Source of the DNA: a phage
Strand: one strand, 5' to 3'
Length of the DNA stretch: 47,086 nucleotides
Assembly: GCA_020364185.1 (NCBI GenBank)
Contig: GCA_020364185.1_4846.1
The position numbers were made by a program, and so were the translations under genes. Position 1 is the first letter of the stretch, and each line of letters begins with the position of its first letter. The notes under the pieces were generated by a model. That model saw only the letters and a program-made list of their open reading frames with translations, searched no databases and was not told the origin of the DNA. Shown piece after piece: positions 4,431 through 47,076 of this stretch.

Positions 4431-4458
4431 ACCCCGCCGAAGCGGGGTTTTTGTTGTT
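4431..4458. terminator. bidirectional intrinsic terminator between convergent replication operon and tail module
   Basis: ACCCCGC-cgaa-GCGGGGT stem-loop followed by TTTTTGTTGTT on plus strand and a U-rich tract on minus strand. Confidence 0.65.
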
Positions 4459-4464
4459 ATAATA

Positions 4465-6609
4465 TTAATCAGCGTAAAACATCAAGAACATAATAAGCTC
4501 ATCATAGCGTATTCCGTACCTTACTCCAGCTGGTTTAACCGTTACAACTTCCTCTAACGTTTCTGGATTAATGCTTCTTTCAGAAGATTCTTCCCACTCG
4601 TCCTTGCACCAGAATGCGTAATCCTCTGGTTTAAGTCCATGCTTTGTTAGGATAGAACCAACGGTTTGCGCACCAACACCGAAGTGTGTCCGTGCAGACT
4701 CTTTTCCCTTAAGTTCTATAGCGTCAGTAAACTTATAGCGAATAATATTCTTGCGAATTTCATTGGCCGCTTCCCTTTCCGCACTCTCGTTTGTTGCCTG
4801 GGCTTTTACCTTCAGCGTTTCATCCGATGTGCTTATTGTGCCCGTGGCAGCATAGACAACAGACCATCTATTTGATGTATATCCTAATACGGTCGCATTG
4901 TCTGTATCAGGCATGAATCCATTGTATCCACTAATCTTAAGGTCGCCATTTGGGTTTCCTGATGATGTTTTACCATCATGGCTGGTCAGGGTTACTCCTT
5001 TTGTCCCGGTAGCGGTTGTTATCAAGATACCGGCGTGGGTAGCACCCAGAAGCTGAATTTCGCTATTATCGTTGCGTAAATCCTGCGCAGGTGCCTCTAG
5101 CACAGATGACGTGAATTTCCATTTCGTATCAGAAAAAAGTTCGACCGGTTGTACGCCATCCTTCTGATACATAATGGCTTTAACCCCGGAGTCCTTGCGT
5201 CTTACACCGATGGCATTTGGTTGCGACCCGGACCAGTTAGACGCGAAAGTAAACCCGTCAAATTCCACCAATGACTCATAAGGATTGCTGGTATCGTTAT
5301 TGATGGGTTCTGTAATAAAAATCCATCCCCAGTCGAAATAGTTATTATAAGTCCCTACGTTAGCATCTATCTGATACGCCCGGGTGCATACCCCCCCATA
5401 GTAACCGTAGAATCTCAGGTTCCCGGCAACTTGTGAGTCGGAGCTTACGGTTTTAACCACGCGCACACCACACGGCACATCTGCGGGACCCGTCGTTTTG
5501 GTTATATTCTCACAAGAGCCGCCAAACACCCGAAGTGAGTCCGTGCTTTCAATCCAGAACGCACAGTTTCCCGTTACGTGAACTGGGTTGTAAATAGTGA
5601 TTCTGGTATTGTTGTTGTCACCTGAAACACTCCGATTGAATCTAAACCCGCAGTCAACGTTTTCAAATACTGGATTTTTTATGGTGTGGTAATACGCGCC
5701 GCTGTTAGCCCCAGAAACTGTTGGTCCTGGTTGCAGTAACACCCCTACAGACACGTCTGTCGCTTTTGGGTTGTTAAGCTGACAAAACTGTTGCGATACA
5801 CGCGTAGTAGTTTGTGTAAGATCTTCTGGGCTTATTGCGTATGCCACTACCTCTGTGAAACCATCTGGATTTATTACCGCAGGGTTGGTTACGATACAGA
5901 AATCATGACTCATTCGTAGACATGTTATGCCAGAAGCTCCTGCTACGATTGTCGTACCAGTGAAATCAATATACCTTGTAGATGTAACATCCTGCGTATA
6001 CGAGCCATCGAACTTCATCACAAGACTTTGTGTTATGCGATATCTCGCACCTACTCTTCCTGTTAATTTACCAAACGGCACCCCTTCCAACCACGACAAT
6101 GCCGCCAGCATCGCGGAGGTATCATTAGTTACCCCGTCGCCAATGGCACCGAACTCTTCAAATGACTTTATTGTCGTAACTCGATGGGCAATCTGGTCAA
6201 TTGTTGCACCATGCTTTGTTAGATCAGTTCTAATAGACGCATCACCAACACTAACCCACGCTCCCAGACCAATGCCACCGGAAGTTTCAGGAGCTGAGCC
6301 AGATGGTACGGTTTTAGGAAACGCACCATCCCAACGGTAATATTCTCCGGTAGCTTCATAACGCAAAACCTGATTTGGTAGTGTCAGTGTCGCCCCATCT
6401 TCAAAGCTATCCATTGTTATGTAGCCATAATTACGGATAGCCTCTTCTGCGGTGTACTGAAAACCAGCAATTGTCCAGCGGCGTACACCGAATCGGTCGG
6501 TGTAGTAATGCGCGTCAGAGTTGACAACTTCGTCAATTTTCCCTGCATTAAATTTCAGGTCTCGCGGGTCTTCTGACGGAATTGGTTTATTGGTTGGTGT
6601 GGTAGACAT
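4465..6609 (-). CDS. tail fibre / tailspike with C-terminal intramolecular chaperone (peptidase S74-like) domain
   Basis: 714 aa from ATG at 6609 (AAGGAG RBS 9 nt upstream); Gly/Ser/Thr-rich beta-rich body; C-terminal region ...SNRWSVVYAATGTISTSDETLKVKAQ...IRYKFTDAIELKG... resembles autocleaving chaperone of endosialidase-type fibres. Confidence 0.7.
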   Translation of the reverse strand: MSTTPTNKPIPSEDPRDLKFNAGKIDEVVNSDAHYYTDRFGVRRWTIAGFQYTAEEAIRNYGYITMDSFEDGATLTLPNQVLRYEATGEYYRWDGAFPKTVPSGSAPETSGGIGLGAWVSVGDASIRTDLTKHGATIDQIAHRVTTIKSFEEFGAIGDGVTNDTSAMLAALSWLEGVPFGKLTGRVGARYRITQSLVMKFDGSYTQDVTSTRYIDFTGTTIVAGASGITCLRMSHDFCIVTNPAVINPDGFTEVVAYAISPEDLTQTTTRVSQQFCQLNNPKATDVSVGVLLQPGPTVSGANSGAYYHTIKNPVFENVDCGFRFNRSVSGDNNNTRITIYNPVHVTGNCAFWIESTDSLRVFGGSCENITKTTGPADVPCGVRVVKTVSSDSQVAGNLRFYGYYGGVCTRAYQIDANVGTYNNYFDWGWIFITEPINNDTSNPYESLVEFDGFTFASNWSGSQPNAIGVRRKDSGVKAIMYQKDGVQPVELFSDTKWKFTSSVLEAPAQDLRNDNSEIQLLGATHAGILITTATGTKGVTLTSHDGKTSSGNPNGDLKISGYNGFMPDTDNATVLGYTSNRWSVVYAATGTISTSDETLKVKAQATNESAEREAANEIRKNIIRYKFTDAIELKGKESARTHFGVGAQTVGSILTKHGLKPEDYAFWCKDEWEESSERSINPETLEEVVTVKPAGVRYGIRYDELIMFLMFYAD

Positions 6610-6648: not shown

Positions 6649-9977
<3,329 letters not shown>

Positions 9978-41783: not shown

Positions 41784-42420
41784 AATAAACGCGCTGAATC
41801 GAGGTCAGAACACAATAATCAGCTCATCCATTACTCTTCGCTTGCCTTCACCGTTAAACACACGCACAACACGATTTACGCGGATAGATTTCATTGCATT
41901 GCGCGCCTTCTTGCTCATAAAGTTCTGCGCGCCAACGTGACCGAGTTCCGGCTCCAGTTTCTCGCGACGATAGATAGTTTTTGCCATGTATTATTTCTCC
42001 ACGTGCACCTGATACATTGCTTGCCAGATTAACACAACAGCATCGCTTAGCTCATCATCAGTAAGGTAGTCGATATCGAAGTTTTCAATAACTTCACGAA
42101 TACCCGCCTCAATCATTTCTTCTGTTGGTTGGATTGGTTTGTTGCTCATTTTGTTACTCCTTATACCCTGATTTAGAAACTGCCACTGCGATAATGATGA
42201 ATGCCACGATAACCAGACTGGCGATAAGTTCGAATGTTGCGCCTGTCATTTGCTTAACCCATACGCTGAGATTAAAGCCTGCATTGCTGCGTTCCAGAAT
42301 GCTTCTGCGGGAATGCTGTTGTTGGTGCGCTCAACTGCAATGCGTGCCATAGCCTGTGCATCTTCAAATTCTTCACGTTCTTTGATTTTCATATCTTCAC
42401 CCTCGTTTGTTTCGATGAAT

Positions 42421-42451
42421 TCAATCTACATCAATGAAGATTCTACGTCAA
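42421..42451 (-). promoter_or_regulatory. promoter region with TTGACGTAGAAT and TGATGTAGATT on minus strand
   Basis: GATTCTACGTCAA 42439-42451 and TCAATCTACATCA 42421-42433. Confidence 0.45.
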
Positions 42452-42479
42452 TATACAGAGAAAGAAAAAACACAACCAA

Positions 42480-42660
42480 ATGTTAGTGTACGCTAGCTAA
42501 CATATATAGTTACATATATTACTAATAGTAACCTTTGTTTATTAACTCTATAAAGTATATTAAGATCTTCTTTATATTTATTATAGATATTAACACCTTA
42601 CGCTACAGAAACACGAAAACCAGCAATTAAGCTGGTTTATTTGTTAATGAATTTAGTTAA
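42480..42660. other. AT-rich low-complexity region (possible DNA-unwinding element)
   Basis: runs such as CATATATAGTTACATATATTACTAATAGTAACC and TTTATATTTATTATAGATATTAAC; no ORF of 60 aa or more. Confidence 0.4.
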
Positions 42661-42674
42661 TTTTGAATCCCAAG

Positions 42675-42940
42675 TTATCGGGAAGCCAAATTCCTTTTGT
42701 TTTCAGTATTTTCCGTTCGCTTCCCAGCTTCCCGAAAATACCCCACCCTTTTTTTTATGATGAGCTTTTGTTTATCCATTTTTTTTGACTCGGGAAGCGA
42801 ACACCTAAACTATTGATTTTGCTTAATATTGGCTTCCCGAGAATTTTTCTCATTTACCTGTATACTATTGAAAGATAAAGGAAAAATTAAGCTCTGAAAT
42901 ATTAATACGCTTTTTCGGGAAGCGTGTCAACTCAGGAAGC
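42675..42940. repeat. iteron-like array: five copies of TCGGGAAGC in alternating orientation plus two degenerate copies
   Basis: TCGGGAAGC at 42678-42686, 42790-42798, 42915-42923; GCTTCCCGA at 42727-42735, 42832-42840; degenerate at 42719-42727 and 42932-42940. Confidence 0.6.
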
Positions 42941-43046
42941 AAAGTATGTAGGTTGCTATTAAGTGTTGCTTCTCTTACTTGCTGAATTATAGAAAAGTTG
43001 ATATATTAAATTGAGTTTACTGCTAATTGATTGTCTGGAGGTTGTC

Positions 43047-43262
43047 ATGTACAGGTTTGGTAGCGCAATGGCTGAGGTGTATGAGTTTGTTAGCGGGATG
43101 TCGATTGGAGAGGTGCGATTTTTTGTGGTAGATGATTTCCGTGCCAATAACAGTATTGAAAAATTCAGGGCGAGCCTGTGCTGTGTTGCGAAAGATAATT
43201 CGTGGCTTTTTGTAACCAGAAAGATGGAAGAAGGCGAAGTGTCTGTTCGGAGGATTAAATGA
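43047..43262 (+). CDS. hypothetical protein
   Basis: 71 aa from ATG 43047 (GGAGG RBS); stop overlaps primase start (ATGA). Confidence 0.4.
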   Translation: MYRFGSAMAEVYEFVSGMSIGEVRFFVVDDFRANNSIEKFRASLCCVAKDNSWLFVTRKMEEGEVSVRRIK

Positions 43263-45592
43263 TGATTGGTTATGAAGATTACCGCAAATGTGGCTTCCCT
43301 ATTATTGGAATCCATGCAATGGATATCGACCGCAATTGCACATGCGGTGATCCAGAATGCAATGCTGCCGGTAAGCATCCGGTTATGAGTAACTGGCAGC
43401 TTGGAGTTATATGGGCTGATGACCAGATTGAAAATATGGCTGAATATGGTCAATTGCAGTCATTCGGTGTCCTTGTGAATGGTTATCTGGTAGTTGATAT
43501 TGATCCACGCAACGGAGGTAATGATGGATATGAATCACTTTGTGATGCCTTAGACGTAGAGCTTGCTGACGAAGCTGGCTTTACTGTTAAGACTGGTGGT
43601 GGTGGTCGCCACATCTATTACAAACTTCCTGAAGGAATAAAGCTGCGCTCTCATGACAGAAGGTTTAAGGGTATTGACTTTAAATCATCTGGTTTTGTTG
43701 TTGGCTGCGGCTCATTCCATAAGTCAGGTAACTTTTATGAAGCTGAGCATGGCTCTCCTTCAGAGATAACTGAATGCCCTTCTGAACTTATTGAGCTTTT
43801 GTTGCGTCCTGAGAGAACGGAAGACGAGGTTTTCACGCTTGATAGTAAAAATTACAGCATTGCCGAAATGGAGGATATGCTCAAATACATCAAAGATGGT
43901 GATGAGTATGACCCATGGCTTCATGTGGGCATGGCTATCCACGAAGCTACAGAAGGCAATGGTTTTGAACTTTGGGATAGGTGGTCATCGCAGTTCAGCA
44001 AGTACAGAGCTGAAGAAATGGACGCAAAATGGCATTCCTTTGGAAAGGACGGTGTTAACGAAAAGATAACCGAAGCAACGCTGGTTTATCTCGCGCAAGA
44101 GGGAGGGTGGGTAAGGCAAGTAACTTTTGAGGCTACTCCAGAGGAAATTGAGAAACTTGAGTCTTTCGAACGAGAGATGGCAATGGGTGTTGGTGAATGC
44201 CCTGTAGAGTACAAAAGTGTTGATGTCCGTTATCCGCCTGGATTTGTTGGTCGCCTTACGGCGTGGATTAATAAGAACTGTGCAGAGAAGCGAGAGAATA
44301 TTGCAGCACTTGCTGCATTGCACGCTGCATCCATGATTTGTGGGGCGTCATCTGATATTTATCTTACAAACAGGAAAGCCTTACCAAACCTGTTTGCTGT
44401 TGGTATAGCTGGTTCAGGTTCAGGTAAGGGTGATGTCCTTGCTGCGCTACAAAAGATAATTGATTGCTCAGGATTGAGTAAGACTGTCGCCGGTAAGATA
44501 CGTTCAGAGCGTGCGATATATGAAGGTCTTTGCGCTAACCAGATGTTTAATATCATCATGGATGAGATTGGGATAAAACTTGGGAGTGTTGTTGGTCAGA
44601 AAGTAAGCGAGTACAACATGGCAACCGCTGGTGCGATCATGGAGGCTTACACGTCAGAAGTTCTTTATTGTGACCAGCGGGTTACTGAGGATTTCATTAA
44701 GTCTTTCGAAAAGAGAAAGGCTATGCTGTTGATGGCTATTGAGGAAAATGAGATACAGGCAGACCCCGTTGACATTAAGTGTCAGTTTGATGATGTGATA
44801 AACAGAATTGACGGAGCTATAAGGAATCCATTTTTTTCAATCTTTGGTGTGTCTACTGATGATCAGTTTAAGCGACTTATTACTGAAGAAAACATTAAGT
44901 CAGGTCTTATGGGTCGTGCAATGATTATGCAGGAGTTACAGGAGATTGCTGACGAAAACGAAAACGTCAACTACTGTGATCTACCTATGGATATGCAACT
45001 GACCATAAAAACAATAATAAATGGAGGAACAGCTGGGCACAAAAACTGGACAGACTCAATAATCAGTCAAAAAGAAAGACGGATTATAAAAGCTACGCCT
45101 GAAGTTTCTCAGCTCGCTAAGGAGTTCTTCTCATGGATTAAAACCGTTGCAAGAAAGCATGTAGAAAATGGTACTGGTTATCACCCATTGATAAACAGAT
45201 GCGCCGTGAAGGTGGCAAAGATTGCTGGCATTCTCGCGTGCGATACTGGCGTCATAACCATGGAGCACTTGAGGTATGCGGTAGCATTAACAATTAAATC
45301 AACAAGCGATCTGATGATGCGTGCTGACAGTATCGCCGGAGCGAAGTCTAAAGCTATGGAAGAACGAATTGAAGGTATTTTCTCCATGGTTAAAGAATAT
45401 GTGAAGCGTGGAATGACCAAAACAGCAATGGTTAGAGGGGTAGCAAAAGAAGGTGGGTATAAACGTGCTGATGTCGAGAGGTGCGTAGAGAAGTTGTTAT
45501 CAGATGGTATTATTTGCATTGATGAAAATGCAAAAAGAACATCTCACAACGTAATAATTTACAAATTAACAAATGATGAGGTTGAGATATGA
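43259..45592 (+). CDS. primase-polymerase (AEP-type) replication protein with central P-loop NTPase region
   Basis: 777 aa; N-terminal Prim-Pol-like motifs (VVDIDPRNGG, TVKTGGGGRHIYYKLP, GIDFKSSGFVVGCGSFHKSGNFYE), PriCT-like WLHVGMAIH...LWDRWS, Walker A GIAGSGSGKG. Confidence 0.65.
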   Translation: MMIGYEDYRKCGFPIIGIHAMDIDRNCTCGDPECNAAGKHPVMSNWQLGVIWADDQIENMAEYGQLQSFGVLVNGYLVVDIDPRNGGNDGYESLCDALDVELADEAGFTVKTGGGGRHIYYKLPEGIKLRSHDRRFKGIDFKSSGFVVGCGSFHKSGNFYEAEHGSPSEITECPSELIELLLRPERTEDEVFTLDSKNYSIAEMEDMLKYIKDGDEYDPWLHVGMAIHEATEGNGFELWDRWSSQFSKYRAEEMDAKWHSFGKDGVNEKITEATLVYLAQEGGWVRQVTFEATPEEIEKLESFEREMAMGVGECPVEYKSVDVRYPPGFVGRLTAWINKNCAEKRENIAALAALHAASMICGASSDIYLTNRKALPNLFAVGIAGSGSGKGDVLAALQKIIDCSGLSKTVAGKIRSERAIYEGLCANQMFNIIMDEIGIKLGSVVGQKVSEYNMATAGAIMEAYTSEVLYCDQRVTEDFIKSFEKRKAMLLMAIEENEIQADPVDIKCQFDDVINRIDGAIRNPFFSIFGVSTDDQFKRLITEENIKSGLMGRAMIMQELQEIADENENVNYCDLPMDMQLTIKTIINGGTAGHKNWTDSIISQKERRIIKATPEVSQLAKEFFSWIKTVARKHVENGTGYHPLINRCAVKVAKIAGILACDTGVITMEHLRYAVALTIKSTSDLMMRADSIAGAKSKAMEERIEGIFSMVKEYVKRGMTKTAMVRGVAKEGGYKRADVERCVEKLLSDGIICIDENAKRTSHNVIIYKLTNDEVEI

Positions 45593-46782: not shown

Positions 46783-46810
46783 AGCCCGCAAACGCGGGCT
46801 TTATTATTTA
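46783..46810. terminator. bidirectional intrinsic terminator
   Basis: AGCCCGC-aaac-GCGGGCT followed by TTATTATTT. Confidence 0.6.
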
Positions 46811-47076
46811 ACAATCCATTTTGTGACAGCTGGCCTTAAATCTTCCTTTCTGAAAACTCCACCAGTAAGCGCCTCGGCATCAATTGCTGCTGTAGCGCTA
46901 ATTCTGCCTCTTGACACCCACTGATTAACAGCCTGTTTTGACACACCAAGAAACCTTGCCAGTTGTGATTGCCCTCCAACATAATCAATCAGCTCTGACA
47001 GCTTCGTCTGTTCCATTTCTCTTATCTGTTCTGCGATGCTTTTCATGTGTTTACCTCTGCTATCTGTATGCAGCAA
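46804..47076 (-). CDS. Cro/YdaS-family helix-turn-helix DNA-binding protein
   Basis: 90 aa; LIDYVGGQSQLARFLGVSKQAVNQWVSRGRIS is a classic HTH with downstream ...GVFRKEDLRP as recalled for YdaS/Cro-like proteins. Confidence 0.55.
   Translation of the reverse strand: MLHTDSRGKHMKSIAEQIREMEQTKLSELIDYVGGQSQLARFLGVSKQAVNQWVSRGRISATAAIDAEALTGGVFRKEDLRPAVTKWIVK

Follow-up and report, generated by a model that had tools for sequence, protein, structure and literature searches.

The initiators Rep and PriRep5 of the SaPI satellite islands are self-loading helicases that bind, by means of a C-terminal winged helix, 6-12 iterons opposed around an AT-rich centre (PMC9371898). SaPI origins carry at least two iterons on each side, in opposite directions, and are located next to the initiator gene (PMC9371898). 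The helicase of PriRep5 is fused to a primase and some SaPI Reps are of the MCM type (PMC9371898). The P4 alpha protein unites a DnaG-type primase, an SF3 helicase and a C-terminal winged-helix origin-binding domain in one polypeptide (PMC2777425). [quoted passage not shown] An essential cis region of pRN1 adjoins the gene (PMC2777425, PMC4234260).

The DNA analyzed here, referred to as the window (47,086 bp in total), derives from a lytic Sf11-like siphophage. Upstream of its gp1-primase operon, the window contains an array of short repeats (42678-42940). With a probability of roughly 0.65, these repeats are replication-origin iterons read by the C-terminal winged helix of the 777-aa primase-helicase encoded in the operon. 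While this iteron-origin design is familiar, it is yet to be described for this phage group; a literature search returned no paper on the replication of these phages.

Like SaPI, the window has several sites (seven) and a T-rich core at the centre of a dyad, together with a proposed initiator that is predicted to end in a winged helix and has an MCM-like AAA+ body. The T-rich core lies between inverted iterons, where SaPI origins have their AT-rich centre (PMC9371898). Unlike SaPI, the host replicon is a lytic enterobacterial siphophage instead of a satellite island, the initiator gave no sequence match among solved structures, and G/C homopolymer tracts bracket the core in relatives of this phage. 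In addition, the iterons measure 7-9 bp compared with 5-6 bp in SaPI, and the array is situated upstream of the operon in the window and immediately downstream in SaPI. The domain order primase, helicase, winged helix is shared with both P4 alpha and pRN1 ORF904. In contrast to P4 alpha, the protein carries an archaeo-eukaryotic-type Prim-Pol domain, PriCT_2 and DUF3987, and its best fold matches are to MCM. pRN1, on the other hand, is an archaeal plasmid whose SF3 helicase comes with D5_N; the cognate binding site has never been identified for it, nor is an iteron array like that of the window described. Because all repeat copies sit at one locus, no second crr-like site, as in P4 ori/crr, was found in the window. 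The short iterons of P4 (TGTTCACC) occur in both orientations.

Repeat array, dyad and core

The array is located in an intergenic region (42393-43046) flanked by divergent genes, a 48-aa gene on the - strand (ending at 42392) and gp1 on the + strand (starting at 43047). The following features were assigned to this region and its left border.

42423-42451, - strand: sigma-70-like promoter of the leftward early operon, TTGACG / 17 nt / TAGATT (promoter scan)
42482-42501, no strand: operator-like imperfect palindrome GTTAGTGTACGCTAGCTAAC (GTTAGTG...CTAAC), just 5' of the leftward promoter; putative function
42504-42600, no strand: AT-rich, non-coding block of ~100 bp, nearly invariant in an alignment of nine phages with differing adjacent arrays
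42617-42638, no strand: 8-bp hairpin AAACCAGC/GCTGGTTT with T-runs on both strands, bidirectional terminator-like (terminator scan of both strands)
42678-42686, + strand: iteron 1, TCGGGAAGC, outer left arm of the dyad
42719-42727, - strand: degenerate iteron CTGGGAAGC, in tandem with iteron 2
42727-42735, - strand: iteron 2, inner left arm
42736-42789, no strand: T-rich core of 54 bp (GC 0.30, T 0.50) between the inner inverted iterons, proposed melting/loading site
42790-42798, + strand: iteron 3, inner right arm
42806-42818, - strand: one IHF-consensus match, AATCAATAGTTTA, located between iterons 3 and 4; weak evidence
42832-42840, - strand: iteron 4, outer right arm
42915-42923, + strand: iteron 5, outside the dyad, toward the gp1/primase promoter
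42932-42940, + strand: degenerate iteron TCAGGAAGC, 39 bp 5' of the putative rightward -35
42979-43007, + strand: putative promoter of the gp1-primase operon, TTGCTG / 17 nt / TATATT, read from the sequence

The window contains exactly five copies of TCGGGAAGC, at 42678 (+), 42727 (-), 42790 (+), 42832 (-) and 42915 (+), compared with 0.28 exact copies expected by chance over its whole length. Five copies were obtained in 0 out of 100 dinucleotide-preserving shuffles. For the 7-mer core GGGAAGC, 6 of the 11 copies in the window fall inside the array region. A second GAAAACCAGC at 6459 lies inside a coding region and was attributed to chance.

In the first-pass annotation, five exact alternating copies and two degenerate ones had been reported beside an AT-rich stretch and the initiator/primase operon. 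These observations were confirmed: all seven sites lie within 42678-42940, the last of them 107 bp 5' of gp1, the first gene of the operon, and the GC content over 42400-42700 is 0.26 versus about 0.46 for the whole window. The orientation, described there as strictly alternating, does follow the order +,-,+,-,+, but is better seen as nested inverted repeats with a dyad near 42760. The outer arms of the inverted repeat (42672-42689 and 42829-42846, 18 nt) are 89% complementary and the inner arms (42715-42725 and 42792-42802, 11 nt) 100%. The AT-rich centre is flanked by at least two opposed repeats on each side, namely 42678, 42719 and 42727 to the left of the core and 42790 and 42832 to its right, while 42915 and 42932 are further sites beyond those flanking the core.

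The T-rich core includes CCCCACCC at 42741-42748. In relatives, the array has at its middle an AT-rich core of ~35 bp that is bracketed by homopolymer C or G tracts of 6-12 nt (L041, ~4532-4570; L042, ~4516-4566; L002, ~4444-4497; L027, ~6899-6952; L045, ~7936-7982). These tracts are inverted in some phages (a C-run followed by a G-run, or the reverse) and direct in others; the window has CCCCACCC as its only homopolymer tract and Sf11 has C8. As judged by eye, the IHF site is the same in L047 and L042, is replaced by a consensus-conforming variant in L004, and is absent from Sf11 and L041. A search of 42393-43046 for DnaA boxes (TTATCCACA-like) yielded none with at most one mismatch and one with two mismatches; a DnaA-box (oriC-type) origin was rejected, as this does not amount to a cluster of boxes.

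The intergenic region is 93% identical to that of Shigella phage Sf11, and the primase 99.7%. Terminase genes are located on the leftward operon, about 2.6 kb from the array; on the right are genes for a Cro-like protein and a RecA-like NTPase. The cumulative GC skew reaches its minimum at 42-43 kb, at the array; this is no independent evidence, because gene orientation switches there too.

Arrays in related phages

In close relatives, the intergenic region is conserved in its left part, the hairpin at 42617-42638 included, but other words stand to the right of the hairpin, with sites at offsets of about 50-68, 104-138, 175-215 and 217-281 nt from it. Conservation of the 9-mer in relatives had been suggested as a check. 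Arrays are indeed kept at this slot and the closest relatives share the layout, but the word itself differs. Words found at the slot among relatives were GCTTCCC, CTATTTGCC, CTAAATGCC, CTATTTCCCGT, GACTTTAGA and CTCTGTAAA, distributed as follows.

Sa179lw and L019: CTATTTGCC
YX3973: CTAAATGCC
gmqsjt-1 and ECO111 5-P: CTATTTCCCGT, in just two exact copies, accompanied by decayed GGGAAG-type sites
L004, ECO95 1-6-1 and L025: GCTTCCC, with different flanking bases
L041 and L042 (primase 71% identical): GCTTCCC
L040: CCTATTTRMC
L027, L009, L017 and L043: GACTTTAGA; in L027, L009 and L017 its copies alternate in orientation like those of the window
L008-type genomes: degenerate GACTTTAGA
L046: CTCTGTAAA (7-mer CTGTAAA 12 times) plus CGTTAGAAG

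Direct repeats also occur in relatives, as triplets spaced 9-11 bp (L001 and L019) or as runs spaced 8-12 bp (L046). The array of L046 (7700-8215) consists of two nested families, CGTTAGAAG-type copies outside and CTCTGTAAA-type copies inside, some of them in runs with that 8-12-bp spacing.

In relatives with primases of 59-76% identity, the array is located 3' of the primase operon and a terminator, still on the early-gene promoter side; in L027 and L043-L046 it lies directly 3' of the operon. The cro-primase-gp3 block (cro being absent in L046) is inverted relative to the early genes in L008-L017, L027-L032 and L043-L046, so that the array follows the primase operon rather than preceding it. 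L008-type genomes carry an inserted gene of 190 aa, on the - strand, beside the degenerate array.

In Skatevirus and Swiduovirus, the Prim-Pol gene is replaced by a stand-alone protein of 495-542 aa, the 495-aa version of which shows a distant relationship to the primase in its helicase part (24% identity, E 1e-11). Pfam searches with the module proteins of Skatevirus and swi2 gave no matches. In VSt472, KFS-SE2 and swi2, which possess this other helicase module, unrelated arrays flank an AT-rich stretch at the equivalent slot; the slot therefore travels with the replication module. These arrays are located 5' of a small gene and the 495-542-aa protein and are composed of TTATCC(C/G) or many copies of CCGGTAACT on both sides of the AT-rich stretch (L022, 2380-2880; L023, 6100-6610; L024, 6100-6630).

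A metagenome scan added eight loci and little new diversity. Contig L048 (P0007) is too short to reach the array slot, and no comparable intergenic slot was found near the primase in L049 (the P0016 locus).

The primase-helicase and the repeat word

The operon to the right of the array starts with the following features.

43047-43262, + strand: gp1, 71 aa, phrog_28700, overlapping the primase start
43259-45592, + strand: protein of 777 aa with Prim-Pol, PriCT_2, MCM-like AAA+ (DUF3987) and winged-helix parts (Pfam, PHROGs, AlphaFold2, Foldseek); proposed initiator, helicase and primase
45356-45589, + strand: C-terminal winged-helix coding region (aa ~700-777), proposed iteron reader

The 777-aa protein was modelled using AlphaFold2 with a pLDDT of 85. 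Its body matched MCM and ORC/Cdc6 in Foldseek, MCM being the best fold match, and its C-terminus is predicted to fold as a winged helix. An AAA+/P-loop helicase body is thus followed by a putative winged helix, and a candidate Walker A motif (GSGSGKG) and Walker B motif (IIMDE) were recognized by eye in the translation. Neither phmmer nor a 51-sequence profile gave a significant match for the initiator among all PDB chains, which presumably include the structures of P4 alpha (1ka8) and SaPI Rep/PriRep5, and no sequence homology to P4 alpha or SaPI Rep was found. As there is no relative in the PDB and the Pfam domains are Prim-Pol, PriCT_2 and DUF3987, the likeness to these systems is one of design (analogy), homology not being demonstrated. 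A protein search using the C-terminal 177 aa alone returned only three fragments.

Comparison with L002, L003 and L019 shows a mosaic primase: identity is 99-100% over residues 301-700, 86-92% over the N-terminal 300 residues and 83% over the C-terminal 77, which indicates recombination breakpoints within the gene. A second gene of 134-145 aa is found between gp1 and the primase in L002 (4979-5383), L004 (4567-5004) and L003 (~5007-5406). Its C-terminal half resembles gp1 (F.FD.F...R..L..V......V.R[IV]K), suggesting a duplicated small domain.

Among the sequences compared, only the last ~60 residues of the 777-aa protein track the repeat word. The helix YKR(A/S)DVER with the wing AKRTSHNVIIY accompanies GCTTCCC (window, L004, L041 and L042), the helix (E/D)DVKR with the wing SNAV accompanies CTAWWTGCC or CCTATTTRMC, and the helix AD(S/A)ERM with the wing SNRA accompanies GACTTTAGA. 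In gmqsjt-1, a helix of the YKR(A/S)DVER class is combined with an SNKA wing, and the word shares TTCCCG with the GCTTCCC class and CTATTT with the (E/D)DVKR class. The DNA of primase and gp3 is 89-100% identical between L002 and L003 except in two 100-nt windows covering the winged helix, where identity drops to 80% and 68%. Conversely, L041, L042 and L047 have N-terminal and middle parts that are 70-75% identical to those of the window and keep the helix, the wing and GCTTCCC-type arrays.

Using about 16 primases in six classes, of which class D rests on only two exact copies, winged-helix and middle-part identities were 82.9% and 82.6%, respectively, for same-class pairs (n = 20), versus 58.3% and 73.7% for different-class pairs (n = 100), i.e., 15 points lower for the winged helix. 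Permutation of the class labels gave 0 out of 5000, a statistic that ignores phylogeny. Furthermore, GCTTCCC was predicted from the winged helix of P0008 alone (74% identical overall), and its contig, L047, carries seven copies in the slot. Together, the co-variation of the classes, the drop in identity between L002 and L003, and this one confirmed prediction are strong, though indirect, evidence for specific recognition of the repeats by the winged helix.

Two comparisons count against this relation. The winged helices of L019 and L003 are identical, yet their words are CTATTTGCC and CTAAATGCC, respectively; two central positions would therefore go unread. Those of L027 and L008 are one substitution apart, with exact GACTTTAGA copies in the former versus a degenerate array in the latter.

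Several other candidate readers were rejected. TerS, considered as the binder of a pac site, is 98-100% identical across phages with three different words, and that of ECO111 5-P is 44% identical to TerS of the window, compared with 98% for its word-mate gmqsjt-1. The Cro-like HTH protein (46804-47046, - strand) is 99% identical across different words, and gp3 (140 aa) is almost the same in L002 and L003 despite their different words. Within the primase, the N-terminal 300 aa, including the Prim-Pol domain, do not track the class, and phages of three word classes share 99-100% identity over residues 301-700. The identity matrix of gp1 (71 aa) is discordant with word class. The product of this 71-aa ORF had been put forward in the first-pass annotation as a possible binder; this was not upheld, its phylogeny disagreeing with the repeat class.

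Proposed origin and alternative readings

Repeats, symmetry, replacement by other words, the predicted winged-helix fold and co-variation of word and winged helix were all observed, and from these we infer physical binding, origin activity and core melting. Each site of 7-9 bp, with GGGAAGC as its core, would be read by the C-terminal winged helix. Opposed sites flank the 54-bp T-rich core (42736-42789); two oligomers could assemble, one on each side, melt the core and then load themselves as helicases, after which the Prim-Pol domain would prime synthesis. Since the design matches that of SaPI Rep/PriRep5, P4 alpha and pRN1 ORF904, 42678-42840 is read as the putative origin proper, with the core as the likely site of melting and loading. 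The sites at 42915 and 42932, near the rightward promoter, may in addition serve to autoregulate the operon. This provides a concrete, testable candidate for the origin and for the determinant of initiator specificity in Cedarrivervirus, Buchananvirus and related lytic siphophages, a widespread group with hosts in Escherichia, Shigella, Salmonella, Klebsiella and Yersinia. The matched series of iteron words and winged helices constitutes a specificity table for domain swaps and orthogonal phage replicons, and can also be used to study initiator-origin co-evolution through concerted change of many copies.

Alternatively, the repeats might serve regulation only: bound by the primase winged helix or by some other factor of the phage, they would control the divergent early promoters, and replication would start elsewhere. 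We consider this unlikely, while leaving it some weight. The array does lie between two divergent promoter-like sites, with 42915 and 42932 situated 39-64 bp 5' of the putative rightward -35, and the arrays of relatives always adjoin the early-gene promoter side. However, no site overlaps a -35 or -10 hexamer, and in the relatives with 59-76% identical primases the array cannot be an operator of the primase promoter, because it lies downstream of the operon and its terminator. Moreover, dyad, T-rich core and flanking G/C tracts resemble the layout of an origin rather than that of an operator, and the sole co-varying partner is an initiator-type protein.

Binding of the repeats by a gp1-family protein, acting as a CopG/ORF56-type repressor of the replication operon, is quite improbable. 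Such a role would agree with the gp1-like gene that follows the array in phages having the gene order of the window and with the small repressor gene that precedes the replication protein gene in pRN1 (PMC4234260). Yet gp1 of the window is 84% identical to that of L001, which has CTATTTGCC, and 47-60% identical to those of L004, L041, L042 and L047, which share the core, while gp1 of L004 is 84% identical to that of L002 despite a different word. In the group with the other gene order, no gp1-like gene was called beside the array, and gp1 itself has no Pfam or NCBIfam domain.

We regard it as very unlikely that the array serves as a signal for packaging or for the genome ends, such as a pac site or the boundary of a terminal repeat. 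In favour of such a role, the terminase genes, to which the leftward operon leads, are about 2.6 kb away, and the Sf11 record (MF158038.1) has identical 335-bp ends that start inside the array, corresponding to 42780-43115 of the window. This overlap ends inside gp1, however, and may be an assembly overlap, and TerS identity is discordant with the repeat word instead of co-varying with it as for a pac site. The Sf11 ends (L033, 1-335 and L034, 2121-2455) are either a genuine terminal repeat or an overlap left by the assembly.

A structured RNA or DNA cruciform, formed by the inverted copies, as the functional unit (for example a single-strand initiation site or an sRNA) is hardly credible: although the region folds better than shuffled sequences (window, z = -4.5; L001, z = -2.9) and inverted copies stay complementary through the motif changes of relatives, many of the copies in relatives (such as those in L001, L019 and L046) are direct repeats, which pairing leaves unexplained, the best Rfam 15 scores were 23.2 and 21.5 bits versus gathering scores of 47 and 50, and no promoter-like site to drive transcription across the array was found. 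The folding z-scores were set aside as reflecting only the inverted repeats.

Returning to an origin read by the winged helix, a wider reading is put forward tentatively, as a possibility that we would not call probable. According to this reading, word and a ~200-bp winged-helix cassette are exchanged together, recognition is modular, and G/C clamps form a new origin element. The exchange may occur among otherwise nearly identical lytic phages. The recognition helix (ADVER vs DDVKR) may read the 3' half of the word (TTCCCG vs TTGCCA) and the wing (SHNV vs SN-A) its 5' half (GC vs CTAT); gmqsjt-1 looks like a natural hybrid of both helix/wing types. As for the G/C homopolymer clamps that enclose the ~35-bp core, they would represent an origin element not described previously. 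If true, replicons would fall into specificity groups resembling plasmid incompatibility groups, co-infecting relatives being unable to use each other's initiator.

An AT-rich unwinding element plus iterons had been proposed earlier as the origin architecture. Its iterons are retained here as those of the replication module, the words co-varying with the primase winged helix. An unwinding role of 42480-42660 is doubtful, because this stretch is filled by the palindrome, the nearly invariant block and the terminator-like hairpin; it is probably something other than an unwinding element, although it could still take part in origin function. The block at 42504-42600 contains no small ORF, has no copies elsewhere in the window and includes no consensus promoter, the only clear promoter nearby in the scan being that at 42423-42451. 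Its conservation exceeds that of the adjacent 48-aa gene, and it includes AAGATCTT. The hairpin is kept in position with different stems, AAAACCCGC..GCGGGTTTT in L040 and AAAAACCGG..CCGGGTTT in L047.

The core of the leftward promoter, TACGTCAA, and most of its remainder are invariant in an alignment of nine relatives, and the motif TTGACGTAGA marks the early-gene side also in relatives with 59-76% identical primases. The rightward promoter lies below the scan threshold and is for this reason termed putative; a similar arrangement is present in L001, L042 and L047. At a place equivalent to that of the imperfect palindrome, Skatevirus VSt472 has a perfect palindrome, GTTAGTGATCACTAAC (L022, ~2452-2472), and L040, L042, L043, L044 and L047 carry a different palindrome-like element, TAGACGTCTGGACGTCTA and variants.
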